This document shows positions 3,316 to 36,700 of a stretch of 41,054 nucleotides of DNA, piece by piece. Where the stretch lies: positions 1-41,054 of the forward strand of contig JAAEMS010000220.1 of the NCBI GenBank assembly GCA_024225275.1, given 5' to 3'. Each line of letters starts with the position of its first letter. Within the stretch, counting starts at the first letter, position 1. Both the position numbers and the translations under genes were made by a program. The DNA comes from Actinomycetes bacterium (GTDB taxonomy: Bacteria; Actinomycetota; Acidimicrobiia; Acidimicrobiales; JAAEMS01). The notes beneath the pieces were generated by a model. It was not told where the DNA came from. It ran no database searches and saw only the letters and a program-made list of their open reading frames with translations.

Positions 3316-3398
3316 TCGATCGGATCGAGCCCGTCCTGCCTAGAGTCCCATGAGTCGATTGGACGGGTCCCGATTCCGGGACCACAGAGGGGGACACA

Positions 3399-4472
3399 TT
3401 GGGGGGCGATCCACGGCCACTGGCCGGCGTGCGGGTCATCGAGATCGGGGGTGGGGTCTCGGCTGCCTTCTGCTCCCACCTCCTGGCCGGCCATGGCGCT
3501 CGGGTCGTCCGGGTGGAGGGCCCGGGCGATAGTGTTCTCGATCCTCACCAGGCGACCTATCTCACCGCGGGCACGAGTGGGGTCATCGAAGGGACCGCCG
3601 CACTGGACGAATTGGTGGGACGGGCCGATGTCGTTGTCGATACCCGCCCGCCCGGCTCCCACACTGGCCCTGACTCGATGGCCCTGTGGGAGAGGCGTCC
3701 GGAGCTGGTCGTCACATCGATCACTCCGTTCGGGCTCTCCGGCCCCCACGCGGGACACCAGGCGACCAATATCGTCTCGTTCGCCGCCGGCGGCATCATG
3801 GCCCTGACCGGCGACGCCGACCGACCTCCCCTGCAGACCGGTGGCGATCAGGCCCACATGCTCGGTGGCCTGCACGCCTTCTCGGCCACCACGGCCGCCC
3901 TGTTCGGTGCCCTGGTTCACGGGAGAGGCGACCACATCGAGATCTCGTTGCAGGAGGCGGCCGCCTCCATGCTCGAGCTCTACGCGGCAATGTGGGAGTA
4001 CGACGGGGAGCTCGCGGAGCGGATGGGTAATAGTGTGCGTGCCGAGTGGGGGGTCTACCCGGTGGCCGACGGCTACGCCGGGGTCTGCTGTCTGGGCCGC
4101 CAGATCCCGGCCCTTCTGGACCTGCTCGATACCGATGATCTCGACGAGCAGTTCCTGGACACCACGTATCGGCGCGAGCACAACGACGAGTTGTTGGCCC
4201 ACTTGTTGGGCTTCATGGCTGATCGAACCAAGGACGAGCTGGTGGCACTGAGCCCCACCCATCGGATTCCGTTCGGTGCCGTCCTTACCCCCACCGAGCT
4301 GTTGGCTGACGAGGGACTGGCCCGGCGGGGGTTCTTCGACACGGTCTCCTTCGAGGGGACAGAAGTCAGGGTGCCGGGGCGCCTCGTGCCCGGACTGGCG
4401 TGGGAGCGACCCTCCCATGCCCCGGCCCGCCCGGTCCGCGACATCCTTGCCGAGTGGGGGTCGGCCCGATGA
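3399..4472 (+). CDS. Family III CoA-transferase (CaiB/BaiF fold)
   Basis: N-terminal LAGVRVIEIGGGVSAAFCSHLLAGHGARVVRVE glycine-rich CoA-binding motif. TTG start at 3399 is preceded by a purine-rich RBS (agaggggga). Ends with ATGA overlap into the next gene. Confidence 0.85.
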   Translation: MGGDPRPLAGVRVIEIGGGVSAAFCSHLLAGHGARVVRVEGPGDSVLDPHQATYLTAGTSGVIEGTAALDELVGRADVVVDTRPPGSHTGPDSMALWERRPELVVTSITPFGLSGPHAGHQATNIVSFAAGGIMALTGDADRPPLQTGGDQAHMLGGLHAFSATTAALFGALVHGRGDHIEISLQEAAASMLELYAAMWEYDGELAERMGNSVRAEWGVYPVADGYAGVCCLGRQIPALLDLLDTDDLDEQFLDTTYRREHNDELLAHLLGFMADRTKDELVALSPTHRIPFGAVLTPTELLADEGLARRGFFDTVSFEGTEVRVPGRLVPGLAWERPSHAPARPVRDILAEWGSAR

Positions 4473-5704
4473 AGCAACTGCCGCTGGCCGGGGTTCGCGT
4501 CGTTGACCTCAGCATGATGTGGGCCGGGCCGTACGCCACCAAGATGCTCGCCGAGATGGGGGCCGAGGTGATCAAGGTCGAGTCACCCCGGGCCTGGGAC
4601 AACCTCCGGACCCTGGTGCCTCAGGATCCCGAGCCTGACGACCCGTGGAACTCGGCCTACTACTTCAACGAGTACAACCACCACAAGAAGTCGGTCACCC
4701 TCGACCTGGCCGACGAGCGGGGTCGCCAGGTGTTGTTCCGGCTGCTGGCCCACGCCGATGTGCTCATCGAGAACTACCGGGCCGACGTCATGGACGCTCT
4801 GGGGCTCAGCGAGGATGTGCTCCGGTCCGCCCGCCCCGATCTGGTCCTTGTCTCCATGGCCGGGTTCGGCAAGACCGGGCCTGACCGGGACAATGTCGGC
4901 TTCGGCCCCATCATCGAGATGATGTCAGGGCTCATGTCGCTGACCGGGTATGGCGACGATGGTGTTCCCTACAAGACCGGCATCTCCTACGGCGACCCGG
5001 TGGCAGGGCTCGCCGCCGTCGGGGCGGTGGCGATGGCCCTGATCCAGAGGCGGCGCACAGGCGAGGGGATCACCATTGACCTGGCCCAACGAGAGACCGG
5101 CGCCAAGATGGGGGGTGCGGCCTTCGTCGCGGCGGGCCTCACCGGCTCCGACCCGGTGGTCACCGGCAACCGCAGCCCACGATGGGCACCCCAGGGCTGC
5201 TATCCGGCCCGGGGCGAGGACCAGTGGATCGTCATCTCCTGCACCGACGACTCCGAGTGGGCCGCGTGTGCCGAAGTGGTGGGTCGGCCTGACCTGGCCG
5301 CCCTGTCGCCCGAGGAGCGACTCGAGCGCCACGACGAGCTCGACGAGGCACTGGGCCGGTGGAGTGCGCCCATCGACCCGCGAGTGGCAGTCGACGAGTT
5401 GGAGGCGGTAGGGGTTCCGGCGGGTCGGGTTCTCGACATGCGCACGATCAAGGACGACCCCCACCTCCACGCCCGGGGCTTCTGGGTGAGGATCCCGAAT
5501 CCCAAGATGCGGCCATACCGCAAACACGGAATCGTGTGGCGACTGGTCGAGGCCAACCCACAGCTGACCCGACGGGCCCCGTGGTTCGGTGAGCACAACC
5601 AGGAAATCCTGGGTGATCTGGTCGGGCTCACCGCCGACGAGCTCGACTTGTTGACCTCAGAAGGGATCATTGCCGATGCGCCGTTCGGTGCCTCGGCTGG
5701 GTGA
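4469..5704 (+). CDS. Family III CoA-transferase (CaiB/BaiF fold), second tandem copy
   Basis: MKQLPLAGVRVVDLSMMWAGPYATKMLAEMGAEVIKVESP motif. ATG at 4469 overlaps the upstream stop (ATGA), implying translational coupling. The track ORF start at 4400 is a spurious 5' extension. Confidence 0.85.
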   Translation: MKQLPLAGVRVVDLSMMWAGPYATKMLAEMGAEVIKVESPRAWDNLRTLVPQDPEPDDPWNSAYYFNEYNHHKKSVTLDLADERGRQVLFRLLAHADVLIENYRADVMDALGLSEDVLRSARPDLVLVSMAGFGKTGPDRDNVGFGPIIEMMSGLMSLTGYGDDGVPYKTGISYGDPVAGLAAVGAVAMALIQRRRTGEGITIDLAQRETGAKMGGAAFVAAGLTGSDPVVTGNRSPRWAPQGCYPARGEDQWIVISCTDDSEWAACAEVVGRPDLAALSPEERLERHDELDEALGRWSAPIDPRVAVDELEAVGVPAGRVLDMRTIKDDPHLHARGFWVRIPNPKMRPYRKHGIVWRLVEANPQLTRRAPWFGEHNQEILGDLVGLTADELDLLTSEGIIADAPFGASAG

Positions 5705-7140
5705 GTCGCCGGCGCACTAGGTTTCCCGACATGAGTGAGGACTTCGATCGGGCCCTGGAGGCCGTGCTGTTGGGTTCGGTGCCCGGAGTCACCGGTCTGA
5801 TCGAGGCCGAACGGCTCAGTGGTGGTGCCAGTCAGGAGACCTACCGTCTCCGGGTCGAGACCGACGACGGGCCGGCTGTGCTGGCCATGCGCCGGGCCCC
5901 CGGCGGCGAGGCCCCCGAAGACCTGATGGGCCGGCCGGGGCTGGAGGTCGAAGCCGAGCTCATGCGGATTGCCGGCGACCATGGTGTTCCGGAACCCGTC
6001 GTCCACCACGTTCTCCAGCCCGCCGACGGCATCGGGCCCGGCTTCATCATGGAATGGCTGGAAGGAGAGGCACTGGGCGGACGAATTGTCCGTTCCCCCG
6101 ATCTGGCCGACGTCCGTCCCCACCTGGCCGGGGAGTACGGCCGCATTCTCGCCCGGATCCACGCCATCGACCTCGACGCCACCGGGCTGCGGGCCAAGCT
6201 CACCGAGAAGTCGACGGTGGAGTTCATCCACGAGATGTGGGACCGCTACAAGCAGTACCCCACGCCCCAACCAATGATCGACTATGCCGCCCGCTGGTTG
6301 CTCGATCACCTCCCCCCTGAGCGGCCCCTCACCCTCGTGCACAACGACTTCCGCAACGGGAACGTGATGGTCGACCCCGACGGGGTGGTGGCGGTCCTCG
6401 ACTGGGAGGCCGCCCACATCGGTGACCCGGGCCGCGACCTCGGTTGGCTGTGCACCGCGTCGTGGCGTTTCGGGAGCGACCTGCCGGTAGGGGGGTTCGG
6501 GACCCGCGACCAGCTCCTCGCCGGCTACGAGGCCGAGTCGGGTGTTGGGGTGGACCCCGAGGAGGTGCGTTTCTGGGAAGTGTTCGGCTCGTTCTGGTGG
6601 GCAGTGGGCTGCATCGGGATGGCCGAGCACTACCGCACCGGGCCCGATCAGTCGGTCGAGCGGCCGGCGATCGGTCGCCGCAGTTCGGAGTGCCAGGTCG
6701 ACTGTGTGAATCTGATCATCCCCGGACCGGTGGAGCTGTTGAGCCCGACCCCGGTCGACGATCGTTCCGACATGCCTCGGGCCGACGAGCTGTTGGTCAG
6801 CGTCCGTGACTTCCTGCGCGACGACGTGATGACCGAAACCCGGGGCCGCACGAACTTCCTGGCCCGGGTGGCCGCCAACTCGCTCGACATCCTGTTGAGG
6901 GAGGGGGCGGTCGGGCCCCAGCTGAGTGCCCTCGAGGCCACGATGCTGGCCTCCCTGCTCGATGATCCGCCCCCCTCCGCTTCGGTCTGGGAACTGCGCT
7001 GGCAGCTCGTCGATCAGCTCCGCGACGCCACCATGCCACTCGACCAGTCGGGCCTCACCGACTATCTGCGTACGGCGGTGGTGAACCAGGTGGCAATCGA
7101 TCAACCCCGTTATCCGGGACTGGCCACCGCCCTGGATTGA
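5701..7140 (+). CDS. Phosphotransferase of the APH/choline-kinase family with a roughly 150-aa C-terminal extension
   Basis: Catalytic-loop and Mg-binding motifs LVHNDFRNGNVMVD...VLDWEAAHIGDPGRDLGW. GTG at 5701 overlaps the upstream stop (GTGA); an alternative ATG lies at 5731. Confidence 0.75.
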   Translation: MSRRRTRFPDMSEDFDRALEAVLLGSVPGVTGLIEAERLSGGASQETYRLRVETDDGPAVLAMRRAPGGEAPEDLMGRPGLEVEAELMRIAGDHGVPEPVVHHVLQPADGIGPGFIMEWLEGEALGGRIVRSPDLADVRPHLAGEYGRILARIHAIDLDATGLRAKLTEKSTVEFIHEMWDRYKQYPTPQPMIDYAARWLLDHLPPERPLTLVHNDFRNGNVMVDPDGVVAVLDWEAAHIGDPGRDLGWLCTASWRFGSDLPVGGFGTRDQLLAGYEAESGVGVDPEEVRFWEVFGSFWWAVGCIGMAEHYRTGPDQSVERPAIGRRSSECQVDCVNLIIPGPVELLSPTPVDDRSDMPRADELLVSVRDFLRDDVMTETRGRTNFLARVAANSLDILLREGAVGPQLSALEATMLASLLDDPPPSASVWELRWQLVDQLRDATMPLDQSGLTDYLRTAVVNQVAIDQPRYPGLATALD

Positions 7141-7934: not shown

Positions 7935-9950
7935 GTGGAAAGCATCATCTCGGCAGCAGTGGTGGTGATCGTCGTACTGCTCGTCGCCCTCCTGGGTATC
8001 GGGCTGATGGTCACCCGCCTCTTCCGCAAGGTCCGCCAGGGTGAGGCCCTGGTCGTGTCGAAGTGGCGTGAGGTGGTCGTGACCTTCACCGGCATGATCG
8101 TCATCCCGGTGATCCACAAGGCCGAGTGGGTGGACATCTCGGTCAAGAACCTCCAGATCGAGCGTCGGGGCAAGGACGGTCTGATCTGTGCCGACAACGT
8201 CCGGGCCGATATCACGGTCGAGTTCTACGTGAAGGTCGACCGCACCGCCGAGGCGGTCATCAAGGTGGCCCAGCAGGTGGGTGCCGACCGGGCGTCTGAC
8301 CCCGAGACCCTGCGCGAGCTCTTCGCCGCCAAGTTCTCCGAGGCCCTCAAGACCGCCGGCAAGCAGTTCGAGTTCGAGTCGCTCTACACCGACCGCCAGC
8401 AGTTCCGCGACGCCATCATCGAGATCATCGGCCAGGACCTCAACGGGTATGTCCTCGAGGATGTCGCCATCGACTATCTCGAGCAGACCCCCATGGACGC
8501 TCTCGATCCCACCAACATTCTCGACGCCGACGGCATCAGGAAGATCACCGAGCGGACTGCCGATCAGCACATCCGCACCAACGACGCCGAGGAACGTGAG
8601 CGGGAGGAGACCTTCCGCCGCACCACCGATGCCGACAAGGCCGTGTTCGAGATGGAACGCGACCGGGCCGAGGCCGAGGCCCGCCAGCAGCAGGAGATCC
8701 GTACCGTCCAGGCTCGCTCCGCGGCCGAGGCCCGAGTGGTCGAGGAGACCTCCCGCGAAGAGGCCGAGTCGGCCCGCATCTCCACCGAGCAGGGGCTGGG
8801 TGTGGCCGACCAGAACAAGGACCGCGAGATCGCCCTGGCCGACGCCAACCGGGAGCGGGTCATCGCCGTACAGACCGAAGAGATCGAGCGCGACCGATTG
8901 CTCGCCGTCGTGGGGCGCGAAACTGCGGTCGCCGAGGCCGGCAAGGAGAAGGAATCGCGGGCCCGTGAGCTGTCCGAGGTGGAGAGGAGCCGGGTCGAGG
9001 CCGACAAGGCCGTGGCTGAACAGGAAGAAGCCATCGCCACCCTGCGGGTTGTCGAGGACGCCCAACGCACCGCCACCGCTGAGGTGAAGATGGCCGAGGG
9101 TTCCGCCCAGGCTGCCTTCGTCTCCCGGGTGCAGGAAGCCGAGGCCGACAAGGCCGCCGCCGGCAGCGAAGCCGAGCGTCGCACCATCCTCGCCCGGGCC
9201 GAGGCCGAGGCATCGGACCAGGAGATGGCTGCCGCCAAGCGCCGGGCCGAAGGGGCCCAGGCCGAAGCAGCGGCGGGTGGCCTCGCTGAAGTCGAGGTCG
9301 AGACCAGTCGGGCTGAAGCCATTCGGCAGGTGGGTACGGCCGAGGTCGACATCGAGCGCCAGCGGGCCGAGGCCATCCGGGACACCGGCGTGGCCGAGGG
9401 TGACGCCACCAAGGCCCGTCTCGCCGGCGAAGGTGAGGGTCTCGAGGCCAAGGCCACCGGTGTGGGGGCTATGACCGAAGCCGGTCGTGGTCACGAGGAG
9501 TTTCGCCTCGGGCTCGACGCCAACAAGGAGATTGCCTTGGCCGGCATCGACGCCAAGGCCGACGTGGCCCGGTCGGCGGCAGCCGCTCTGGGCGAGTCGT
9601 TGTCCAACGCCGACATGCAGATCGTGTCCGACGAGGGCATCGTCGAACGTATCCTGTCGGCGGCCGGGCATGGTCAGGCCATCGACGGGTTCGCTACCAA
9701 CGGCGACACCGCTCGTCAGCTCCTGTCGCCCTACCTCGAAGGCGACGGCAACTTCGTGGCCGACGTGGCTGCCGGTCTCGGCGGCCTGGGTGCTGCCGGT
9801 CTCCGTGACCTCACGATCGCCGACTTCATCGGCCGTCTCGGCCGCCGGGTCGACGACGGGGGAGCGCTCGACCGTCTGCGGGCAGCCATCGACGACGCGG
9901 GTATCGCCGACCTGCCTGTCGGTGACCTGCTCGACGACGGGGCCAAATAG
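7935..9950 (+). CDS. Flotillin-like SPFH/band-7 protein (YqiK/FloT type)
   Basis: GTG start sits 9 nt after AGGAG. N-terminal TM helix, SPFH core (GEALVVSKWREVVVTFTGMIVIPVIHKAEWVDISVKNLQIERRGKDGLICADNVRADITVEFYVKV), then a roughly 300-aa E/A/R-rich coiled-coil flotillin tail. Confidence 0.9.
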   Translation: MESIISAAVVVIVVLLVALLGIGLMVTRLFRKVRQGEALVVSKWREVVVTFTGMIVIPVIHKAEWVDISVKNLQIERRGKDGLICADNVRADITVEFYVKVDRTAEAVIKVAQQVGADRASDPETLRELFAAKFSEALKTAGKQFEFESLYTDRQQFRDAIIEIIGQDLNGYVLEDVAIDYLEQTPMDALDPTNILDADGIRKITERTADQHIRTNDAEEREREETFRRTTDADKAVFEMERDRAEAEARQQQEIRTVQARSAAEARVVEETSREEAESARISTEQGLGVADQNKDREIALADANRERVIAVQTEEIERDRLLAVVGRETAVAEAGKEKESRARELSEVERSRVEADKAVAEQEEAIATLRVVEDAQRTATAEVKMAEGSAQAAFVSRVQEAEADKAAAGSEAERRTILARAEAEASDQEMAAAKRRAEGAQAEAAAGGLAEVEVETSRAEAIRQVGTAEVDIERQRAEAIRDTGVAEGDATKARLAGEGEGLEAKATGVGAMTEAGRGHEEFRLGLDANKEIALAGIDAKADVARSAAAALGESLSNADMQIVSDEGIVERILSAAGHGQAIDGFATNGDTARQLLSPYLEGDGNFVADVAAGLGGLGAAGLRDLTIADFIGRLGRRVDDGGALDRLRAAIDDAGIADLPVGDLLDDGAK

Positions 9951-9952
9951 CG

Positions 9953-12900
9953 GTGACGGACACGTCCCCGCCGCCTGCGGGGAGCCCGCCGTCAGAGCTT
10001 GGCGCCCAGAGCGACGACACCGCTGGGCCCAGCGAGGCGGACGAGCTGAGGGGGGGTTCCTATGAGCTTCTCCGCCGCCGGCTGGCCAGCCAGGCCCGCC
10101 AGTTGGTCAGTGGCGCCGAGGCCGTCGACAGTCGTCGGATCGCCACCTTCTCGTCCAGCCGGCTGAAGCTGGTCGGGTCCGACCGATTGAGCACCGACGT
10201 CATCGGCCAGGCTCGCGACATCGTGCGCATCGGCGACCTGCTCCTTTTCGGCTACAACGTGGGTCTCGACCTGGCCAGCGTCGAACCCGAGCACGTCTTC
10301 GCCCTGTACCGGGCCGGTGGCGCCGGCGGGCGACCCCATCCCGAGCTCGTGCCCGTGGACCCCTCCGATCCCGCCTACTTCCTGGGCGATCCGGTGTTCC
10401 GGGAGGAATTTGCCAAGCTGTACCGGTTCTACGGCAAGGCCCGATTCATCGACCTGAGGGCGTCGACCACCCAGTTGCTGGCCGCCTTCCAGGTGGGGGA
10501 CCGCATCAGCGATGTCGTAGTCCTGCGCTGGGCGGTGGCCGACGACGGTTCGGTTGCGTTCATCGACAGCCGCGGTGACCGCGACTACACCTGGCCGCCG
10601 GCCCATGACTTCATGTGGACCGTGTGTGGCCGTGAGGACCAACGAGCGGGCGCCCACCCCACAGTGGTGGTCGACAACGAGGTATTCGTCGGGTTCCGCA
10701 ACGGCCGGCTCCAGCTCCGCACCGAAGACGGCAGCCCCGGCGGCCGCGTCGTGGTCGACGAGGAGGTGGAGGCACCCGGCCAGTCGTTGGCCGATGTCGA
10801 GGTGGCCTGGTTCGGCCTGGGCGATGTCTTGTTGCTCCGGGTCTCTCTCTACGGCGAGGCCGAACGCTTCTATGTGTTCGGTCGCCGCAGCGGTTCGGGT
10901 ACACGGGTCGATGCCATCGGTGCCGCTTGTCGGATCCTGCCCGGCGAAGACGGCGTGGTCTTCCCCGGTGGGTATCACCTGGCCTCCACCGGTACCCGGG
11001 TCTTCGAGGTCGATGCCCAGGAGATGGTCTTCGAGGAGGCCGTCGTCTCCCCGAACGGTGAGGACGTCCTGTACGTCTTCCACCGGCCCGAGAATGGCGA
11101 CTATCTGCTGTTGCCCTACAACCTCGTGCGCAAAGAGATCACCCAGGTCATCCCCTGTCATGGCTTCGGGGCGTTCGGCGATGGGTCGATGGTGTTGTTC
11201 CGGGGCGGGCCCGACGACAGTGCTGCCGCCCGCGCTCATCCGGTCCAGTGGTGGGAGACACCGTTCACCGATCCTGACATCGAGCAGGTGGTGGGCGACG
11301 ACCGGTGGATCGTCACCGTCGGCAACCCCACCCTCGTTCGAGGTCTTGCCGATGTGTACGACCTCGGTCGGTTGATTGATCAGGCCGAGAGTTCGGAGCG
11401 CACCTGGGAGGCAATCATCGTCGCCGCCCGACGGGCTCTGGACACCCACCTGTGGTTCGGCGACGACGAGGCCGGCGGTCTTCACGACCAGCTTCGGGGC
11501 CTGCTCGGCACCGCGGGCCAGATTGTCGACGAGTACGCCAGGGTCCGCCGTCTGCGGGGTGAGGCGGTCCGCCGGACCGACGAGGCCCGAATGGGAATCC
11601 GCCGCACCATCGACTCCGCCGGCCAGGCCGGCGAACCGGGTGCCGTGGTCAGCGCCCTGGGTGAACTTCAGAGGGCGCGGGGCGAGACCTCGCTGTTGAG
11701 CGACGTGCCCGAGGTCAGCGACGCCGACGTGAGTGCCCTCATCGACGAGCTCGACGGTGCCCTGGCCCAGCTGGCCGACCGGGCTGTGTCGGTCCTGGAC
11801 TCCGATACGGCCTTCGCCCGCTTCACCGATCAACTCGACCTCCTCGTGACCGAGGGCACGGCCGCCCCCACCACAGCAGAGGTCGACTCGGTGGGGGAGC
11901 GGCTCACCACCCTGCGAACTGACTTGGGTGCCGTGGTCGACGCCGTCACATCGCTCGATGCCGGTGACCCCACCGTGCGGACCCGGATCGTGCGTCGGGT
12001 CGCCGACACGACCGCAGCCGCCAACCGAGCCCAAGCCGTATTGGCCGGTCACCGGCGGGGTCTCTCCGAGAGCGAATCGGCCGAGGCCTTCGACGCCGAG
12101 CTGGCCCTGGTCGAGCAGACCCTGGCCGGCGTGGTCGTCTCGCTGGAAACCCCCGAGGACTGCGACGCCGAGCTGGCCCGCCTCCTCGTGAACGTGGAAC
12201 GCATCGAGGCCAGGTACGCCGACGATCCTGAGCGGGTGGCCAGCGTGGCTGAGCAGCGTGAACGGGTCGCCGAGATCATCGGCAACCGACGCACTGAGCT
12301 CGCCGACGCCCGCGCCCGGCGAGCTGCCCGCATCACCGAAGCCGCCAACCGGCTACTGGCCACCATCGGACGACGGGCGGCCGAGGTCGACGACGATGCC
12401 GCGGTGGCTGGGTTCTTCGCCGCCGACCAGATGGTCTCGCGGGTCCGGTCGTTGGCTGATGACCTCGATGAGCTCGGCGAGCGGGGGTTGGCCCAGGAGA
12501 TCCGCACGGAGCTGGCCGCAACCGCCGAGGAGGCTGCCCGCCAGGTTCGGGACCGCAAGGCGCTGACCGCCGATGACGGGTCGATCGACTTCGGGGGATT
12601 CCGGTTCGCGCCGAACCATCAGCCCTTCGACGTGGTGCTCAGCCCGGCCGGTGACGGCCGTATCGGGGCCGCGGTGACCGGTACCGAGTACCGGGCCGAT
12701 GTGACCGAGCGGCTCGGCGAGTTCGCCGATCTGCTCGACCAGAGCGTTCCCTCGGAGACACCCACGATCTACCGGGGTGAGTATCTGGCCTGGGTCGTGT
12801 TGGCCGAGGCCGAGAAGGCCGATGGAGTGGCCGAGCTGATCTCGCGGGCTGCGGCCCCCGATCGGATGGTCGACCATTGCCGGGCCGCGGCCGAGCGTCG

Positions 12901-14872
12901 CCACCTCGACGGCTACCAGCGGGGTGTCCACGACGACGACGCCGCCCGGATCCTGAGCTCGGTGCTGCCTCACAGCGCGGCGGAGCCCCGCCTGCGTCAT
13001 CCGGGTTGGGTACGGGCTCAGGCCCGGATGTGGCTGGCCGAGCTGGGCCCCGACCACGTCGATCAGCTCGCCGCCCGAATCGGTGGAGCCTGCACTGCGA
13101 GGCAGCGGCTCGGGGCCAGCGGCCCTCTCGATGACGTCGTCGCCGCCCTAGAGGCCGATGCCCCCCGTTCGGCCCCCTGGTACCCGGGCGACGGCCACTG
13201 GTCAGCGGTGCTCGGCTATCTCGTCGATCAGTTCGAAGATGGTCCGGTCCCCCTCGTTGCCGCCAGCACTGCTCGCACACTGGTGACCCGGCTCAACGAA
13301 CGTTTGGGCCGGGAGGGAGTGGCCGATCTCGAGGCGTCCATGACCGGTTCCCCCGATCCGCTGGCTGCCGCCCGAGCCTGGGTGGCTGCCTACGTCGAGG
13401 GCGACGGGTCTCCGGAGTCGTTGGCACTGGACATCGACGAGGCCGCCGGTCTGCTGGCGGCGCCCCACGTCGAGACCGTCGACGCCACCCACCCCGGTGG
13501 GATCGCCATCACCGGTCTCGCCGGTGATCACCCCCGGATCGAAGGAGGCCAGCTCCTGGTCCGTCTCGACGAGCTGGCCGAACGAGTCGGCCGCCATCAC
13601 CGCACCATGGAGGACCGTTGGCCCCGCTACGCCGAGGCTCGCCGCCGGGTGATCGCCGAGGTCAGGGCCCAGGTCGATGTCGACGAACACCGGCCCCGGG
13701 TGATGGCGGGTTTCGTTCGCAATCGGCTGATCGACGAGGCCCTCCTGCCCCTGGTCGGGGCCAACCTCGGGCGCCAGCTCGGAACCGTCGACCAGACCGA
13801 GCTGGCCCGGTCGGGCCTGATGGTCATGATCAGCCCTCCCGGCTACGGCAAGACCACCCTCATGTCGTGGGTGGCGGACCGCCTCGGCCTGCTCATGGTC
13901 AAGGTGAACGGCCCGGCTCTGGGACAGGACACCACGAGCCTGGACCCCGCGGCCGCTCCCAACGCCGCGGCTCGGGCCGAAGTCGAGAAGATCAATCTGG
14001 CCTTCCGGTTCGGGCGGAACGTGATGCTCTTCCTCGATGATGTGCAGTACACCGCGCCGGAGCTGCTCTCCCGCTTCATCCCGCTCGCCGACGCCACCCG
14101 CCGCATCGAGGGTGTGATCGATGGCGAGCCCACGACCTTCGACCTCCGGGGCAAGCGGTTCTGCGTGGTCATGGCCGGCAACCCCTACACGACCGGTGGC
14201 CGCTTCGAGCTGCCTGACATGCTCGTGAACCGATCCGACGTCCACAACCTTGGTGACGTCGCCGATTCCCATCGGGTCGCCTTCGAGCTGTCCTATCTCG
14301 AGAACAGTCTGACGGCGTGCCCGACCTTGGCCCCCCATGCGGCCAAGCTGGCCGACGACATCGAGCTGGTGCTGGCGATGGCCGACGGTCGTCGGGCGGT
14401 CGCCAGCGACGGTCTGAACCATCGGTGGGACTCATCAGAGCTTGGCGACGCGGTGCGGACCATCCGCCACCTGCGTCGAGCCCAGGAGGTTCTGCTCCTG
14501 GTGAACGAGTCCTATGTGCGCTCGGCGGCGATGCGCGACGAGGACCGGGTCGTTCCTCCCTTCCTACTTCAGGGGTCGTACCGGAACATGGCCCGGCTGG
14601 CCTCGCGGATCGTGCCGGTGATGACCGACGACGAGCTCGATGTTGCCGTCGACGAGCACTATCGGGCCGAAGCCCAGACCCTCACCGAGAAGGCCGAGGA
14701 GAACCTGTTGGCCCTCGCCGCCAAACGAGATCGGCTGGCAGACGCCGACCAGGTGAGGTGGGACGCCATCACCGAGCGGTGGGCCGGCATGGCCGCCGCG
14801 GCTGATCCGGCGGGCCGGATCGCTGAAGCGATCGATCGCCTGGCCGGCCGGATGGAGTCTGATACCCGGTAG
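9953..14872 (+). CDS. Giant (1639 aa) cytoplasmic protein with one C-terminal MoxR/AAA_5-type AAA+ ATPase module; N-terminal roughly 1290 aa of unknown function
   Basis: GTG start 2 nt after the flotillin stop. Single P-loop ISPPGYGKTT (about aa 1296), Walker B MLFLDDVQY, then IEGVIDGEPTTFDL and FCVVMAGNPYTTGGRFELPDMLVNRSD. These align well to the MoxR pattern [53 protein letters not shown]. No TM segments and no second P-loop. The N-terminal region is beta-rich, followed by a long A/E/R/D-rich helical region. Confidence 0.8.
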   Translation: MTDTSPPPAGSPPSELGAQSDDTAGPSEADELRGGSYELLRRRLASQARQLVSGAEAVDSRRIATFSSSRLKLVGSDRLSTDVIGQARDIVRIGDLLLFGYNVGLDLASVEPEHVFALYRAGGAGGRPHPELVPVDPSDPAYFLGDPVFREEFAKLYRFYGKARFIDLRASTTQLLAAFQVGDRISDVVVLRWAVADDGSVAFIDSRGDRDYTWPPAHDFMWTVCGREDQRAGAHPTVVVDNEVFVGFRNGRLQLRTEDGSPGGRVVVDEEVEAPGQSLADVEVAWFGLGDVLLLRVSLYGEAERFYVFGRRSGSGTRVDAIGAACRILPGEDGVVFPGGYHLASTGTRVFEVDAQEMVFEEAVVSPNGEDVLYVFHRPENGDYLLLPYNLVRKEITQVIPCHGFGAFGDGSMVLFRGGPDDSAAARAHPVQWWETPFTDPDIEQVVGDDRWIVTVGNPTLVRGLADVYDLGRLIDQAESSERTWEAIIVAARRALDTHLWFGDDEAGGLHDQLRGLLGTAGQIVDEYARVRRLRGEAVRRTDEARMGIRRTIDSAGQAGEPGAVVSALGELQRARGETSLLSDVPEVSDADVSALIDELDGALAQLADRAVSVLDSDTAFARFTDQLDLLVTEGTAAPTTAEVDSVGERLTTLRTDLGAVVDAVTSLDAGDPTVRTRIVRRVADTTAAANRAQAVLAGHRRGLSESESAEAFDAELALVEQTLAGVVVSLETPEDCDAELARLLVNVERIEARYADDPERVASVAEQRERVAEIIGNRRTELADARARRAARITEAANRLLATIGRRAAEVDDDAAVAGFFAADQMVSRVRSLADDLDELGERGLAQEIRTELAATAEEAARQVRDRKALTADDGSIDFGGFRFAPNHQPFDVVLSPAGDGRIGAAVTGTEYRADVTERLGEFADLLDQSVPSETPTIYRGEYLAWVVLAEAEKADGVAELISRAAAPDRMVDHCRAAAERRHLDGYQRGVHDDDAARILSSVLPHSAAEPRLRHPGWVRAQARMWLAELGPDHVDQLAARIGGACTARQRLGASGPLDDVVAALEADAPRSAPWYPGDGHWSAVLGYLVDQFEDGPVPLVAASTARTLVTRLNERLGREGVADLEASMTGSPDPLAAARAWVAAYVEGDGSPESLALDIDEAAGLLAAPHVETVDATHPGGIAITGLAGDHPRIEGGQLLVRLDELAERVGRHHRTMEDRWPRYAEARRRVIAEVRAQVDVDEHRPRVMAGFVRNRLIDEALLPLVGANLGRQLGTVDQTELARSGLMVMISPPGYGKTTLMSWVADRLGLLMVKVNGPALGQDTTSLDPAAAPNAAARAEVEKINLAFRFGRNVMLFLDDVQYTAPELLSRFIPLADATRRIEGVIDGEPTTFDLRGKRFCVVMAGNPYTTGGRFELPDMLVNRSDVHNLGDVADSHRVAFELSYLENSLTACPTLAPHAAKLADDIELVLAMADGRRAVASDGLNHRWDSSELGDAVRTIRHLRRAQEVLLLVNESYVRSAAMRDEDRVVPPFLLQGSYRNMARLASRIVPVMTDDELDVAVDEHYRAEAQTLTEKAEENLLALAAKRDRLADADQVRWDAITERWAGMAAAADPAGRIAEAIDRLAGRMESDTR

Positions 14873-20406: not shown

Positions 20407-21516
20407 GTGTCGGGCAGACTGGGGGCCATGACCAACGCGGCGACCACCAGCTCGGCCCTGGGTCTGGCCGTGGCCGCGGGGGTACCGGTGCTGCTCTGGG
20501 GGGCACCGGGTACCGGCAAGAGCTCGGCGGTGCGAGCCATGGCCGAATCCATCGGCTGGCCGTGCGAGGTGGTCATCGCCTCGATCCGTGAGCCCACCGA
20601 CTTCGCCGGGCTCCCGGTTGTGGTCGACGATGGCATCCGTTTCGCCCCGCCCACCTGGGCCACCAGGCTGGCCGAGTCCGAGCGCGGGCTTCTGTTCCTC
20701 GACGAGATCTCCACCGCGCCACCCGCCGTCCAGGCGGCCCTCCTTCGGGTGGTGCTGGAACGGGTCGTGGGCGATCTGGATCTGCCCGACAGCATCGCCG
20801 TGGTTGCGGCCGCCAACCCGCCTGACCAGGCGGCCGATGGCTGGGACCTGTCAGCCCCCCTGGCCAATCGCTTCTGCCACCTCGACTGGGACGTCGATCC
20901 GGCGGCGGTGGCCGAGGGTCTGGCCGGCGGATTCCCCGAGCCCACCGTTCCCCAGCTGGCCGGTGAATGGGAGAAGCGCATCACCACCGCCCGGGCCCAA
21001 GTGGCTGCGTTCCTGGTGGTGCGGCCCGGGCTGGTGTCCGCACCGCCCACCGAACGGGCCGCTGCGGGCCGAGCCTGGCCCAGTCCCCGATCCTGGGAGA
21101 TGACGGCCCGCCTCCTGGGCGCCGCCCAGGTCGCCGACTCCGACGGCCCGGTTCGTGCCGCCTTGGTCACCGGATGTGTCGGCCAGGGGGCGGGTATCGA
21201 GTTCCTGTCCTGGCTCGACGAGCTCGACCTGCCCGATCCCGAGGCGGTGCTGGCCGACCCGGGCTCGTTCGTCCTGCCCGAGCGGGGTGACCGGGCCTAC
21301 GCGGTGCTCACCTCGGTGGCCGCCGCGGTGGCGGCCGACACCACGCCCGAACGGTGGGCCGCCGGTTGGGTGGTACTGGGCCAGGCCGGCGAAACCGCTC
21401 CCGATGTTGCCGCGGTGGCTGCCCGCATCCTGGCCCGGTGCCGGCCCGAGGGTGCCTCGGCCCCACCCCAGGCCGCGGCCTTCGTACCCCTCCTAGAGCA
21501 GGCCGGACTGCTCTGA
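20407..21516 (+). CDS. MoxR-family AAA+ ATPase (AAA_5)
   Basis: Walker A LLWGAPGTGKSS, PTD motif (REPTDFAGLP), Walker B LLFLDEISTA, QAALLRVVLER, sensor ANP (VVAAANPPD) and LANRF. GTG start at 20407; alternative ATG at 20428. Confidence 0.85.
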   Translation: MSGRLGAMTNAATTSSALGLAVAAGVPVLLWGAPGTGKSSAVRAMAESIGWPCEVVIASIREPTDFAGLPVVVDDGIRFAPPTWATRLAESERGLLFLDEISTAPPAVQAALLRVVLERVVGDLDLPDSIAVVAAANPPDQAADGWDLSAPLANRFCHLDWDVDPAAVAEGLAGGFPEPTVPQLAGEWEKRITTARAQVAAFLVVRPGLVSAPPTERAAAGRAWPSPRSWEMTARLLGAAQVADSDGPVRAALVTGCVGQGAGIEFLSWLDELDLPDPEAVLADPGSFVLPERGDRAYAVLTSVAAAVAADTTPERWAAGWVVLGQAGETAPDVAAVAARILARCRPEGASAPPQAAAFVPLLEQAGLL

Positions 21517-21520
21517 CCGG

Positions 21521-22714
21521 GTGGTTGACCCCGTGACCCACAGCCCGCTCCCGGCCCTCGACGGGGAGAAGGTGGCCGCCGCGAGGCTCCACGCCATCGA
21601 TCGCTTCCCTTACCTGGCGTCAGCCCTGTTCGCCGCCCCGATCCTCGAAGCCGACGAACTGGGTCGCCTCATGGTCGATGAGTGGTGGCGGATCCATGCC
21701 GATCCGGTGACCGTCGACCAGCTGTCGGTCCCGGAGTTGGCCGGTGAGCTGCTACACCTGACCGGCCACCTCCTGCGCGATCACGCGGCCCGGGCTCGAA
21801 CCGTGGGGTTCGACGAGGCCACCGAGCTGCACCACTGGGTCGACGCGGCCGACGCAGAATTGGTCGACGATCTGCCGGCCGATCTGCAGGCTCTGGCGGC
21901 GGTGCACCCCGAGGATCTGGGCTGCGAGGACGGGCGTCTGGCCGAGGAGTACTACCGGCGCGGCCTGCCCCGAGAAGGCATGGAGAACAACTGTGGGAGC
22001 GGAGCCCACGGGCGACACGCCCCCTGGGAGCCCCCGCCCCCGAGCGATGGCGGCGAAGGTTTGGAGCGTGATCAACAGGAGCTGGTCCGCCGCCGGGTCG
22101 CCGAAGACGTACTTCGTCACGCCAACGAGGCCACCAAGGGTTTGCGCCGTTGGGCCCAGGAAGCTGTGGGCAGCCAGGTCGACTGGCGTCGGGAGCTGGC
22201 CTCCGAGCTGAGGCGCAGTATCTCGTGGGTCAGCGGTGCCGTCGACTACAGCTGGGCCCGTCCCAGCCGTCGTGCCGTCGCCCTCGGGCCGGTGGTATTG
22301 CCCTCCTTGCGCCGGCCCGTCCCCGAAGTGGCGGTGGTGGCCGACACCAGCGCATCGGTGTCGGACGAACTGCTGGGTGAGGCAATGGCCGAGGTCGACG
22401 GCCTGCTGAGGGCGGTGGGGGTCCGGGATGTCCGGGTGTTGGCGTGTGACGACGCGGTCCGAGGGGTGAGCCGGGTCCGCCAGGTCGAGGACATCACCCT
22501 GCTGGGCGGGGGTGGCACCGACATGGGAGTGGGCCTCGAAGCCGCCCTCGACCACCGGCCCCGCCCCCAGGTGGTGGTCGTGCTGACCGATGGGTGGTCG
22601 CCGTGGCCGGAAGCGCCCCTGCCCGGCACCCGGGTGGTGGTGGGTCTGTTGGGATCCGATCCTTCGCCTCCTCCCTCATGGTGTCGGACGGTCGCCATCG
22701 GGGATGCCCTGTGA
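21521..22714 (+). CDS. VWA-domain protein, DUF2201-like (N-terminal putative metallopeptidase-like domain plus C-terminal von Willebrand A)
   Basis: MIDAS DxSxS motif in VAVVADTSASVSDEL, then LTDGWSPWP near the end. It begins 5 nt after the MoxR stop. The N-terminal region has HLTGHLLRDH but no clean HExxH. Confidence 0.8.
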   Translation: MVDPVTHSPLPALDGEKVAAARLHAIDRFPYLASALFAAPILEADELGRLMVDEWWRIHADPVTVDQLSVPELAGELLHLTGHLLRDHAARARTVGFDEATELHHWVDAADAELVDDLPADLQALAAVHPEDLGCEDGRLAEEYYRRGLPREGMENNCGSGAHGRHAPWEPPPPSDGGEGLERDQQELVRRRVAEDVLRHANEATKGLRRWAQEAVGSQVDWRRELASELRRSISWVSGAVDYSWARPSRRAVALGPVVLPSLRRPVPEVAVVADTSASVSDELLGEAMAEVDGLLRAVGVRDVRVLACDDAVRGVSRVRQVEDITLLGGGGTDMGVGLEAALDHRPRPQVVVVLTDGWSPWPEAPLPGTRVVVGLLGSDPSPPPSWCRTVAIGDAL

Positions 22715-27362: not shown

Positions 27363-29849
27363 TCAGAGGGGCCGGCCCTCGATATCGAGGTAGTCGAGCG
27401 ACAGGTGGCGTTCTGCGTCGAGGGCGGCCATCTCGTCGTCGCCCAGTCCCAGCAGGCCCCGGTAGATCTCGTCGTTGTCGGCCCCCATACGATTGAGCGG
27501 GCCCCAACAAAGGTCGGGCCCGTCCCAGTGCCACAGGTGTCCGGGGAGGAGGTAGGGCGGGACGTCGGGCGAGCTGTTCTCACGGAAGAAGCCCCGGGCC
27601 GCCAGCTCGGGGTCGGCCAACAGGTCGGCTTCGTCGAGCACTGGGCCCACGGTCACGCCCAGCTCACGCAGGCGGGCCGCGAGCTCGTCGCGATCGAAGC
27701 TGGCCGACCATTGGGCGAGCCGGTCGTCGAGGAGGTCGTGCTGGGCTCGGCGGCCCGTCTCGGTGGCCAACCCGGGGTCGAGGGCCCAACCGGGGGAGTC
27801 CATGGCTTGGACCAGGGCCGCCCACTCGGTGTCGTTGGCCACCGTGATGGCGATCCATCGGTCTTCGCCGGAGCAGGGATACACCCCTTGGGGCGCCAGG
27901 TGGGGGTCGCGGTTGGCGTGACGGTCGTGGGGTTCGCCGGTGAGGGAAGTGTCGACGAGATACTCACCGATGTAGTTGAGCAGGTTCTCGGCCTGAGCCA
28001 ACTCGATGAGCTCGCCGTGACCGGTGCGTTCCCGCCGGCGGAGGGCGGCGAGGATGGCGAACGTGGCCGCCGCGCCGCTGGCGGGATCCATGAAATAGGT
28101 GGAGTCGAGGGCCGAGGGATCGAGATCGAGGTAGCCCCGGAGTGAGGTCAGCCCACAAATGGCCTCCATATGAGCTCCGAACCCGATGTAGTCGGAGTAG
28201 GGCCCTTCGAGGCCCAGGGAAGGCAGGCGGGCCGCGATCAGCCGGCTGTTGCGGGCGTGGAGCTCGTCCCAGCCCAGGCCCAGGGTGTCGAGCACCTTGG
28301 CTGAGTTGTTCTCGACGAACACGTCGCTCTGCTCGACCAGGCGCAGGAACGTCTCGCGACCGAGCTGGGTGCGCAGGTCGAGCGTGGCGCCCTTCTTGCC
28401 CCGGGCGTGGCATACGAACGCACCCACCCGGTTCCAGGGGCGCTCACCCCCCTCATCACCGGGGAACACACCCCAGTACTGACCCAAGTCGGCCTCGTGG
28501 CCGGGCCGGGGTCGGGGGATGGCCCCCCGGGTGGCGGTGGGGAACAGGTTCGGATTGTCGAGCCGGATGACCTCGGCCCCCAGGTCGCCGAGAAGGGCGG
28601 TGCAGAGGGGTCCGGCCCACACGACGGTCAGGTCGAGGACGCGGACTCCCTCGAGGGGGAGGCGGCGTTCGCCGGCCGGTGTTCGGGCGGCCCGCTCCGG
28701 CGGGGGTGCTGCCCTCAGTTCGGCGGTGTGCTGACCCAGGGTGGGCGAGGGCCGCCGCGGGACCCATCCATCGGTCATCCGGATCTGGGGACCCGGTGCT
28801 TCGAACTTGCCGGCGACCGGATGATCCACTGGGGTCCAGAACCCTCGGCTCCGGAAGTGATCGTCGGCCAATACGTCGGTGGTGGAGTTCAGCGGGGTGA
28901 CGGCCAGCTGCCGGGCCTGGGCGTCCTCCATGGTCTGCTGGCTCGTGCGGGTGAGTGTCCAGCCGAAGATGGCCTCGTTGAGCAGCCCCGGTATCTCGTC
29001 GTCTTCCATCCAGTCGGGCTGGGCGATTCGTTCCTGTAGCTCCTCATGGCCCAGCATCTCGGCCACTCGGGGCATCCAGTTGGGGGCGAACACGATCTGG
29101 GTGTAGCCGTCGAGGGTGGGGTAGATGCCGGCCGGGATCAGGCCCTCGCGGTGGCCACCCTCGCGCTCTCCCAGCCGGCCGGTGAACACATGGCGTACCA
29201 GGAGGGCGATACGGCGGTCGATCGAGCCCGCCTGGGTCTCGAAGTTGGAGACGTCGACATGGGTTCCCTGCCCCGACGCCTCGGCCATGGCCACTGCCGC
29301 CAGGGTGGCCGCCGCCGCCACCGCCCCGCACTGGTATTGGATGATGTTGCCGGCCAACCTCACCGGCTCCCGATCGGGCGACCCGGTGGAGCTGAGGGGT
29401 CCGGCCATGGCGTAGGTCGTGAGCTCGCTGGCCGGCCACCCGGCGTAGGGGCCGGTGCGACCGAAGGGGGTGACGCTGGTGACCACGAGACCCGGGTAGC
29501 GGGCCCCCAACTCATCGGGGTCGAGGCCCGGAGGTGACCGGCCCGGGACCGAGGACTCGATGACCACGTCGGCGCCGGCGATGAGGTCCGCGAGCAGGGC
29601 CCGGTCCTCGTCGGCCTCCTCGTCGATGACGACCGACCGCTTGTTGCGGTTCAGATGGAGGAAGAGGGGGCTGCGTTCCGGGTCGGGTCGCGGCCCGGGC
29701 CGGGGACTCTCGCTCCGGGACGGGTCGCCGGTGGGCGGCTCGACCTTGATGACATCGGCTCCGTAGTCGGCCACCAGCTTGCCCGTGTAGGGGCCGGCGA
29801 TCCCGGTGGCGAGCTCGACCACCACGAGCCCGGCGAGGGGTTGTTCCAT
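27363..29849 (-). CDS. Tandem-fused double family III CoA-transferase (two CaiB/BaiF domains in one 828-aa polypeptide)
   Basis: Two separate N-terminal-type CoA-binding motifs: LAGLVVVELATGIAGPYTGKLVADYGADVIKVE at the N-terminus and LEGVRVLDLTVVWAGPLCTALLGDLGAEVIRLD near residue 400. Each is followed by the family III large and small domain blocks. Confidence 0.85.
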   Translation of the reverse strand: MEQPLAGLVVVELATGIAGPYTGKLVADYGADVIKVEPPTGDPSRSESPRPGPRPDPERSPLFLHLNRNKRSVVIDEEADEDRALLADLIAGADVVIESSVPGRSPPGLDPDELGARYPGLVVTSVTPFGRTGPYAGWPASELTTYAMAGPLSSTGSPDREPVRLAGNIIQYQCGAVAAAATLAAVAMAEASGQGTHVDVSNFETQAGSIDRRIALLVRHVFTGRLGEREGGHREGLIPAGIYPTLDGYTQIVFAPNWMPRVAEMLGHEELQERIAQPDWMEDDEIPGLLNEAIFGWTLTRTSQQTMEDAQARQLAVTPLNSTTDVLADDHFRSRGFWTPVDHPVAGKFEAPGPQIRMTDGWVPRRPSPTLGQHTAELRAAPPPERAARTPAGERRLPLEGVRVLDLTVVWAGPLCTALLGDLGAEVIRLDNPNLFPTATRGAIPRPRPGHEADLGQYWGVFPGDEGGERPWNRVGAFVCHARGKKGATLDLRTQLGRETFLRLVEQSDVFVENNSAKVLDTLGLGWDELHARNSRLIAARLPSLGLEGPYSDYIGFGAHMEAICGLTSLRGYLDLDPSALDSTYFMDPASGAAATFAILAALRRRERTGHGELIELAQAENLLNYIGEYLVDTSLTGEPHDRHANRDPHLAPQGVYPCSGEDRWIAITVANDTEWAALVQAMDSPGWALDPGLATETGRRAQHDLLDDRLAQWSASFDRDELAARLRELGVTVGPVLDEADLLADPELAARGFFRENSSPDVPPYLLPGHLWHWDGPDLCWGPLNRMGADNDEIYRGLLGLGDDEMAALDAERHLSLDYLDIEGRPL

Positions 29850-29880: not shown

Positions 29881-30906
29881 TCACAGGCGGCGCTCGGCGG
29901 CCTGGGTGGCCGCTTCGACGAGACCGGGCATCTCGGCCTGGAGACCCAACTCGGGACGGGCGTCCAGCCAGGCCACCAGCATGAGGTGACGGATCAGCAG
30001 GAAGGTGTCGATGAGGGTGACCTGATCATCGCTGAGCGGTCGGACCTCGCGGTAGCCCTGGACCAGGGCCTGGCGGGCCGCGACCTCGTAGGGCTCGCCC
30101 ACCGATGGATGGAGGGCAACCGCAAGCTCGTGGGCGTACCAGCCGTATCCGGCATCGTCGAAGTCGATCATGACCAGCCGGTCGTCATCGGTGACGAGCA
30201 CATTGTGGAGGTGGAGATCGGCATGAATGAGCCCATAGTCATCGGTGGTGGCCAGCCCGGCCAGTACGTCGTGGGTGGATGCTCGGGCCCGGAGGAGGAG
30301 ATCGGCCTGGGCGGGGGTGAGGCCATCGACTTCCCAGAAGCGACCCCACAGCGGGTCCTGCCCCACCAGACCGGCGACATCCCAGGACCGGCGGCTGAAG
30401 TCCGGCGGCCGTGGCCAACGCTCGGAGACGTCGTGTACCCGAGCGGCCAGCGCCCCGAGCCGGCGGTGGTGTTCGGCGGCCCGGCTGGAGTCGTGGGCCA
30501 GGGACTCCCCGAGGGGGCTGCCATCGATCCATTCGATGACCCCGACTTCGCGTTGCTCGGACCCTACGGGGAAGGCCCGGTAGAACTCGCCGTGCCGATT
30601 GGGGAGGGCACCGGGGAGATCGAGCCCGGCTTCGCGGAGCGCCGATACCCACGCCACCTCGGACTCGAGCTCGGCCCGCGAGTTGTAGCCCGGGCGATGG
30701 AGGCGCAGAGCGACCGGGCCCTGGGCGCCGGCCCTCTCGGCCCGGAACACGGCGTTCTCCTGGATGGCCACCAACTCGATCGACCCGGCGTCGAGGTCCC
30801 ATTCGACGGCCGCAGCTCGGGCCGCGGCCGCCAGTTCGGGGGTGGGGGTGGGCTTACGCTCGAACACTGGTGGCGGGGACGGCGTCGATCGCGTCAGAGA
30901 AGGCAT
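29881..30906 (-). CDS. APH/homoserine-kinase-II-like small-molecule kinase
   Basis: Brenner and Mg-binding motifs LIHADLHLHNVLV...LVMIDFDDAGYGWYAHELA. The ATG at 30906 would overlap the upstream aminotransferase by 53 nt; an in-frame GTG at 30867 gives a 14-nt overlap. Confidence 0.75.
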   Translation of the reverse strand: MPSLTRSTPSPPPVFERKPTPTPELAAAARAAAVEWDLDAGSIELVAIQENAVFRAERAGAQGPVALRLHRPGYNSRAELESEVAWVSALREAGLDLPGALPNRHGEFYRAFPVGSEQREVGVIEWIDGSPLGESLAHDSSRAAEHHRRLGALAARVHDVSERWPRPPDFSRRSWDVAGLVGQDPLWGRFWEVDGLTPAQADLLLRARASTHDVLAGLATTDDYGLIHADLHLHNVLVTDDDRLVMIDFDDAGYGWYAHELAVALHPSVGEPYEVAARQALVQGYREVRPLSDDQVTLIDTFLLIRHLMLVAWLDARPELGLQAEMPGLVEAATQAAERRL

Positions 30907-32152
30907 CGAGGAAGAGGTCGGCGTGCTCGTCGTTGAACACGAGCGGGGGTCGGACCTTGAGCACGTTGCGGTGCTGTCCGGCCTGGCCCATGAGGATGCC
31001 CCGCTGGCGCATGGCCTCGACCACGCGGGCCGCTCCGTCGGGGTCGGGGGTGTTCGAATCGGGGTCGGTGACCCACTCGACGCCGATGAACAGGCCGTGG
31101 CCGCGCACGTCGGCCAGAGCAGGATGCTCGAGCGCGTCGAGGCCGGCCCGGAGATGGGCTCCGACCCTGGACACCTGGCTCACCAGGTCGCCGCTCTCGA
31201 TCTCCTCGAGTACGGCGTTGCCGGCCGCAGCCTGTAGCGGGCTTCCCGCGTAGGTGTTGAAGTACCGGCGGGTACGTCGAAAGCCGCTGACCAGCTCATG
31301 GCTGGCTGTCACGCCCGACACCGGTAGGCCGTTGCCCATTGGTTTGCCCATGGCGACGATGTCGGGCTCGAACCCCGAGGTCTGGTATCCCCACCACCGA
31401 CCGCTGCGGGCGAAGCCGGCCTGAACCTCATCGGCGATGAACAACCCACCCGCCTCGTGTACGAGCTCGACTGCCCCTTCCATGAAGCCGGCGGGGATGC
31501 GGGGGAGGCCCTCGTTGGCCATGATCGAGCAGGCGATCATGCCGGCGAAGCCCACCCCGTCGGCCTCGAACGCCGCGATCTGGGTTTCGAGCTCGGACAG
31601 GTAGAGGGCGGTGAGCTCGGTGTCGGTGAGGCCGGGGGCCAGGGGCCGGAAGAGTTGGGGGGTGGGGATGGACCGGAACTCGGGGTGGGGGCTGGATGCG
31701 TTGACCGACGACAGCCTGGTCAGCTTGCTGACCTCCTCGGTGTTGCCGTGGTAGGTGGCGTCGGTGCCGATGATCCCCCGGCCGCCGGTGGCGCCCCTGG
31801 CCATCATGAGGGCGATCTCGATGGCCTCCGAGCCCGAGCAGGCGAACACGACGCTCTCGAACTGGTCGTGGTGGAGCCCGAGGAGCCGTTCGCCGTACTC
31901 GATCACCCCTTGGTGGAGGTAGCGGCTGTGCACATTGAGGGTGCGGGCCTGCTGGTACATGGCCTCGGCCACCCGGGTATTGCCGTGTCCCACACAAGGC
32001 ACATTGTTGTACACGTCCAGATAGCGGTCGCCGTCAGCGGTGTGGAGCCAGACCCCGTCACCCTCGGTGAGCTCGAGGGGTTCGTCGTAGAAGAGGGGAG
32101 TGGCGTCGCCGAGAATGCGGTCGTGTCGGGCCCGGAGCCCATCGGGGGCCAT
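30854..32152 (-). CDS. Class III PLP-dependent aminotransferase-fold enzyme; candidate O-phospho-aminoalcohol phospho-lyase or aminotransferase
   Basis: YLDVYNNVPCVGHGNTRV, GSEAIEIALMMAR, the DEVQAGFARSG motif (DEV.. of class III) and the PLP lysine region GKPMGNG. Confidence 0.85.
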   Translation of the reverse strand: MAPDGLRARHDRILGDATPLFYDEPLELTEGDGVWLHTADGDRYLDVYNNVPCVGHGNTRVAEAMYQQARTLNVHSRYLHQGVIEYGERLLGLHHDQFESVVFACSGSEAIEIALMMARGATGGRGIIGTDATYHGNTEEVSKLTRLSSVNASSPHPEFRSIPTPQLFRPLAPGLTDTELTALYLSELETQIAAFEADGVGFAGMIACSIMANEGLPRIPAGFMEGAVELVHEAGGLFIADEVQAGFARSGRWWGYQTSGFEPDIVAMGKPMGNGLPVSGVTASHELVSGFRRTRRYFNTYAGSPLQAAAGNAVLEEIESGDLVSQVSRVGAHLRAGLDALEHPALADVRGHGLFIGVEWVTDPDSNTPDPDGAARVVEAMRQRGILMGQAGQHRNVLKVRPPLVFNDEHADLFLDAFSDAIDAVPATSVRA

Positions 32153-35514: not shown

Positions 35515-35551
35515 CAAGACCAAGATCACACCGACACAAGGGACACACCAC

Positions 35552-36700
<1,149 letters not shown>

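Follow-up and report, generated by a model that had tools for sequence, protein, structure and literature searches.

A two-domain family III CoA-transferase from an acidimicrobial contig as a probable single-chain counterpart of the heteromeric BbsEF enzyme

Introduction

Proteins that carry two family III CoA-transferase domains in tandem on one chain were described as a class by Dong et al. (2018, Nat Commun; PMC6006322), with a poorly conserved linker between the domains, a conserved Asp in the C-terminal domain and 2,401 members, mostly from Actinobacteria and Proteobacteria. The gene analysed here lies on the minus strand at positions 27,363 to 29,849 of a 41,054-nt stretch of DNA from an Actinomycetes bacterium of the order Acidimicrobiales (contig JAAEMS010000220.1 of GenBank assembly GCA_024225275.1; this whole stretch is called the window below) and encodes such a protein of 828 amino acids (aa). 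The first member of the two-domain class to be characterised was DddD, which reportedly acts on dimethylsulfoniopropionate (DMSP) as a CoA-transferase and lyase (Todd 2007; Alcolombri 2014). The two domains of this CoA-transferase/lyase span residues 1-416 and 439-821 (PMC7174347), and in PtmU4, another member, mutants of D430 are 125-400-fold less active (PMC6006322). A search of the literature returned nothing usable on Rv1866, on fused or tandem CoA-transferases apart from Dong et al., on a structure paper for BbsEF or on the catalytic residue of DddD.

The fusion itself is not new, and the novelty implied by an earlier note on the same DNA, made from the sequence alone, did not hold, since the two-domain architecture belongs to an already recognised class. 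We read the protein, with a probability of about 80%, as a single-chain heteromeric family III CoA-transferase of the BbsEF type, in which an N-terminal unit without a nucleophile is joined to a catalytic C-terminal unit.

Architecture of the fused gene

27363..29849, minus strand: two-domain family III CoA-transferase, complete open reading frame (ORF) of 828 aa plus TGA stop (ORF call, Pfam)
28710..29849, minus strand: N-half, residues 1-380, BbsEF chain-A-like, without nucleophile (best solved match 9fn0_A)
28662..28709, minus strand: inter-half linker, residues 381-396, APPPERAARTPAGERR (poorest conservation, majority frequency 0.31)
27366..28661, minus strand: C-half, residues 397-828, BbsEF chain-B-like predicted catalytic unit (best solved match 9fn0_B)

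The observation of two domains on one chain is correct and stands far above chance. The 828-codon frame is unbroken, with a GC content at third codon positions (GC3) of 0.88 in the N-half and 0.87 in the C-half, 10 and 8 stops in the two alternative frames and an even base composition across the region. Pfam places two CoA_transf_3 (PF02515) stretches in the ORF (E = 6.3e-169), and both halves align across their whole length with solved family III enzymes (template modelling (TM) scores 0.82-0.93). The earlier note had proposed exactly this pair of domains, with glycine-rich CoA-binding motifs at residues about 5 and about 400 and halves that differ substantially. All of this is borne out, the motif positions roughly: the N-terminal CoA-binding loops lie at residues ~12-20 (ELATGIAGP) and 405-414 (LDLTVVWAGP), and the mutual identity of the halves is ~25%.

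A collection of 5.8 billion proteins contains an identical protein, which NCBI annotates as 'MAG: CoA transferase [Actinomycetia bacterium]', and at least 119 full-length fused relatives of 809-904 aa and 50-85% identity, mostly from metagenome-assembled genomes (MAGs) of Acidimicrobiia and other Actinomycetota. An AlphaFold2 model built on 108 homologues reached a mean predicted local distance difference test score (pLDDT) of 95.5 and a predicted TM score (pTM) of 0.96, with the linker included and without any low-confidence segment, and it is a single compact unit; over the whole chain, these values would mean that the halves are confidently packed against each other. The linker is rich in Ala, Pro and Arg, and the span from H374 to L397 that holds it varies between 18 and 54 residues in the 108 homologues. 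The most conserved block is the large domain of the C-half (majority frequency 0.75), while the large domain of the N-half is also well conserved.

Position of the catalytic aspartate

28086-28088, minus strand: codon GAT of Asp588, the predicted nucleophile, aligned to YfdW/Frc Asp169 in 'ALGDSNTG'
29337-29339, minus strand: codon CAA of Gln171, the N-half residue at the catalytic-Asp column, aligned to the Asp of 4ed9 'AFADIFTG' and SUGCT 'AMTDLATG'

Judged from these alignments, the catalytic half is the C-terminal one and the N-half lacks the Asp. At the nucleophile column (Asp169 of Frc, YfdW and CaiB) the C-half reads 'YFMDPASG' with Asp588 and the N-half 'NIIQYQCG' with Gln171. The YfdW row of the alignment has 'GDSNTG' from chain residue 170 on, with chain numbers offset by +2 against the native ones, which makes Asp169 the D of 'ALGDSNTG'. 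Asp588 is invariant in the fused homologues (119/119), and position 171 is occupied by Q (77), E (18), S (15), A (5), R (3) or G (1), and by Asp in none of them. The same polarity is found in other phyla, where Asp stands at the C-like column in 33/33 fused proteins and 41/41 split units (74/74 together), whereas at the N-like column it stands in 0/27 split units. This corrects the first reading of the sequence, which had the catalytic Asp context retained in the N-half and was thus the wrong way round.

The secondary structure of the model is consistent with these columns. Predicted helices start at residues 169 and 587, Gln171 being the third residue of predicted helix 169-192, which matches the position of Asp165 near the start of helix alpha7 (163-186) in MCT (PMC9196870). 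The column of the 'GYD' motif (Glu142 in the N-half, Gly558 in the C-half) was considered as the site of the nucleophile and rejected, as Asp169 of YfdW lies ~30 residues further on. Position 142 is always acidic in the 119 homologues (E92/D27), and Glu142 corresponds to Tyr139-Glu140 of Frc and His126-Asp127 of MCR, that is, to a non-nucleophile column. The acid-base pair His126/Asp156 of MCR is present in neither half: the N-half has Ser141-Glu142 and Gln171, the C-half Phe557-Gly558 and Asp588, and the His is found in neither.

Relationship to BbsEF and to split gene pairs

3399..4472, plus strand: N-like gene of a paralogous split pair, no Asp ('GDQAHMLGG'), 30% identical to the N-half
4469..5704, plus strand: C-like gene of the same pair, Asp kept ('ISYGDPVAG'), 38.8% identical to the C-half, overlapping the N-like gene at ATGA

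The two halves match different subunits of benzylsuccinate CoA-transferase. The N-half prefers chain A (9fn0_A, E = 8.6e-46, against 4.3e-22 for chain B; Foldseek TM 0.82) and the C-half chain B (9fn0_B, E = 2.2e-53, against 2.1e-19 for chain A; Foldseek TM 0.92-0.93). The title of PDB entry 9fol names a 'D178-CoA adduct', and residue 178 is an Asp ('NYTDHV') only in chain B, with Ala in its place in chain A; the nucleophile of BbsEF therefore sits in the subunit that resembles the C-half, and Asp588 is the equivalent of this Asp178.

Split relatives repeat this arrangement, both within the window and outside it. A Rhodococcus qingshengii plasmid carries an N-like gene, with His in the column of the nucleophile, and after it, overlapping by 4 nt, a separate C-like gene (Asp kept); this pair sits within a bbs-like beta-oxidation cluster. 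GTDB species genomes yielded 80 loci, of which 32 are fused and 48 split, with the order N-like then C-like in the loci that were examined in detail. Fused forms also occur in Chloroflexota, Myxococcota and Binatia, interleaved across phyla with split pairs that include one from a Bacillota MAG. In a crude neighbour-joining tree, which is indicative only, fused and split forms interleave with at least 16 changes, and the protein falls in a clade that holds only fused forms and has split pairs as its nearest neighbours. In some genomes several copies stand next to one another: one genome (L007) holds, beside an FMN-dependent dehydrogenase, a further fused paralogue (857 aa; 2193-4766), another (L025) has two fused genes and a third (L026) two split pairs. 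Such multi-copy genomes fit the expansions of CaiB/BaiF that have been described for SAR202 (PMC5395668).

Since adjacent pairs of unfused genes have the same asymmetry, the divergence of the halves predates their fusion, and the fused gene represents a heterodimer with a covalent link rather than a duplicated homodimer that diverged afterwards. The idea of a pseudo-heterodimer with diverged halves, put forward in the earlier note, thus gains support from the pTM of 0.96, the reciprocal subunit matches and the presence of the nucleophile in one half; what has to be changed is its polarity. Separate genes in related genomes had been named there as the sign of an artefact. Such genes were found, but they are genuine heteromeric relatives and no such sign, because more than 119 independent sequences have the fused form.

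Proposed mechanism and alternative readings

In the mechanism that we propose, the variable Ala/Pro-rich linker joins the two units, the halves would fold together into a pseudo-dimer, for which family III normally uses two chains, and the interlocked topology would form within one chain. As there is a single nucleophile, one complete active site is most likely, probably composed of the large domain of the C-half (Asp588) and the small domain of the N-half. By homology, Asp588 would attack the acyl-CoA donor, a mixed anhydride would form and after it an aspartyl-CoA thioester, and the acceptor carboxylate and CoA-S- would resolve this intermediate to the new acyl-CoA. The most plausible substrate would be an organic (di)carboxylic acid, the donor being succinyl-CoA or a similar compound.

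Several observations weigh against this reading. Glu occupies position 171 in 18/119 homologues, the N-half shows no decay (majority frequency 0.73-0.83 over residues 1-40, the CoA-binding N-terminus) and several of its Arg, Lys and Gln residues are invariant. If the small domain of the N-half completes the sole active site, it was predicted to be better conserved than that of the C-half, and the opposite was seen (0.58 versus 0.64). A conserved gene neighbourhood was sought for the assignment of a substrate and was not found among the relatives, and all NCBIfam equivalog scores stayed far below their cut-offs, the best model being succinate--glutarate CoA-transferase with 301 bits against a cut-off of 750. 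Since the N-half retains strong conservation, it may be more than a scaffold, and its pocket may have an additional role.

Perhaps the N-like unit is a conserved pseudoenzyme partner that occurs split or fused in at least six phyla through recurrent fusion and fission, with a CoA-type pocket that would serve a second substrate, channelling or allosteric control and, as for DddD and PtmU4, a chemistry that goes past plain CoA transfer. We consider this wide-ranging proposal unlikely; if it were true, the Actinomycetota/Acidimicrobiia clade would represent a third functional type, possibly tied to the kinase and the phospho-lyase-like aminotransferase next to the gene.

Chemistry beyond simple CoA transfer, with the N-half pocket as a second function, a second substrate site or a regulatory site, is distinctly unlikely. 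It would fit the two characterised two-domain enzymes, both of which are non-canonical: DddD combines CoA-transferase and lyase, and PtmU4 transfers sulfur to make thioacids (PMC6006322). The N-half has kept its CoA-binding region and Glu/Asp142 despite the loss of the nucleophile, and in the 85%-identical relative an AMP-binding acyl-CoA synthetase lies four genes off in the same co-directional cluster. In the window, however, no acyl-CoA synthetase was found within two genes of the fused gene, where more than 90% of the thioacid group have one, and no ddd-type operon was found. The closest solved relative, BbsEF, is an ordinary CoA-transferase with the same asymmetry, and DddD was placed by Dong et al. 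as an outgroup to the other two-domain proteins (PMC6006322).

That both halves are catalytic, with two differing active sites and an N-half nucleophile such as Glu/Asp142 or, in some homologues, Glu171, appears very improbable. The invariably acidic residue at position 142, the well conserved large domain of the N-half and an apparent Asp at the N-half column in 9/33 distant fused relatives would speak for a second site. Position 171, however, accepts chemically unlike residues (Q/E/S/A/R/G) inside the clade, residue 142 corresponds to Glu140 of Frc, which is not the nucleophile, and the chain A counterpart in BbsEF likewise lacks the Asp. Replacement of the nucleophilic Asp of PtmU4 by Glu lowered its activity 125-400-fold (PMC6006322).

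That the fusion is an assembly or frameshift artefact uniting two adjacent genes, for which adjacent split pairs in relatives (48/80 loci) and in the window could be cited, is hardly conceivable in view of the 119 independent fused proteins of full length, which come from many samples and assemblers and align end to end, the identical protein at NCBI, the single reading frame with uniform GC3, the confident model through the linker and the coherence of the fused clade on the tree.

Gene neighbourhood and other features of the window

29881..30906, minus strand: APH-family kinase, upstream of and co-directional with the CoA-transferase gene, 31 nt from its start (Pfam APH, E = 3e-26)
30854..32152, minus strand: class-III aminotransferase (PRK06148/06149-like), upstream and co-directional (profile match)

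Both in the window and in L090, the relative with 85% identity, the CoA-transferase gene is the last of a co-directional cluster that consists of a 158-aa protein, the class-III aminotransferase, the APH kinase and the CoA-transferase itself; the other flank in the window holds EamA and MFS transporters. In L001 the aminotransferase and the kinase are nearby on the opposite strand, and among the relatives examined a pair of APH kinase and aminotransferase near the fused gene recurs only in L090 and L001/L002. In this lineage only, the pair may share a transcript with the CoA-transferase gene. Together, the two genes (29881-32152, minus) resemble the fused kinase-aminotransferase models PRK06148/PRK06149, which relate to hydroxylysine or amino-alcohol kinase plus phospho-lyase systems.

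Relatives with 68-72% identity (L005, L006 and L091) have a convergent HMGL-like lyase instead, and the sole synteny that they share is an adenine glycosylase. The HMGL-like gene, of the HMG-CoA/citramalyl-CoA lyase family, lies directly downstream of the fused gene (9522-10607 in L005, 9503-10624 in L006 and 10518-11606 in L091); it is absent from the window, where EamA/MFS transporter genes occupy that position. The remaining relatives have unrelated neighbours. Nothing at the locus points to a specific new activity.

A second APH-family kinase, with DUF6285 (5701-7140, plus), follows the C-like gene of the split pair with a 4-nt overlap. As this kinase and the one near the fused gene are not close paralogues, no link between kinases and transferases is claimed. 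Another family III gene of the window, of a third type, encodes a single-domain CoA_transf_3 protein (~35519-36700, plus) with GHDINY and GDFGGG motifs, whose His/Asp pair is typical of alpha-methylacyl-CoA racemases. Elsewhere in the window, an unusual large gene pair encodes a 671-aa SPFH/Band-7 protein and, after it, a protein of 1639 aa that combines DUF3686 ('ATPase involved in DNA repair'), DUF7902 and an AAA domain (7935-14872, plus), a MoxR-like AAA ATPase precedes a DUF2201 protein with a putative metallopeptidase and a VWA-like domain (20407-22714, plus), and a PAS-GGDEF-EAL protein is encoded at 709-3315 (minus).

Significance and comparison with known systems

As the two halves correspond to different BbsEF subunits, the recent BbsEF structures are direct templates for the whole two-domain class. 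Only two members of this class have known functions and both are unusual, so uncharacterised clades such as the one described here are reasonable targets for enzyme discovery.

By description, the protein resembles DddD in its length of ~820-830 aa and in two CaiB-like domains with nearly the same boundaries. It differs in that a ddd operon context (BCCT transporter, DddB/DddC dehydrogenases, LysR regulator) was not found adjacent to the gene, the sole Fe-type alcohol dehydrogenase lying ~8 kb off on the other strand, and in the outgroup position of DddD relative to other two-domain proteins (PMC6006322). With PtmU4 and the thioacid cassettes it shares, again by description, the two domains and the putative catalytic Asp in the C-terminal one. 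The Asp of PtmU4 is residue 430, however, which implies a shorter N-terminal part, and no PtmA3-like acyl-CoA synthetase was found within two genes of the fused gene.

BbsEF shows the same pattern distributed over two distinct subunits, of which one alone has the nucleophile, and its nucleophile-bearing subunit has Gly in place of the acidic residue of 'YD/YE', as does the C-half. BbsEF differs in consisting of two separate polypeptides with only ~31-32% identity to the halves, and neither bbs beta-oxidation nor bss genes were found near the fused gene in the window. The C-half has, in addition, an insertion of ~19 residues relative to BbsEF chain B (residues ~433-475, nt ~28425-28553, minus) with an invariant Pro471-Trp472-Asn473, and this insertion is also present in the C-like units of split pairs ('PWN'/'PYE').

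The closest agreement is with the class of Dong et al., with which the protein shares the tandem domains, the poorly conserved linker and the C-terminal Asp (119/119 homologues of the clade and 33/33 fused relatives from other phyla), although its own clade, from MAGs of Actinomycetota/Acidimicrobiia, is uncharacterised. All features that define the class are present, and the protein is an uncharacterised member of this already recognised and widespread group of enzymes.

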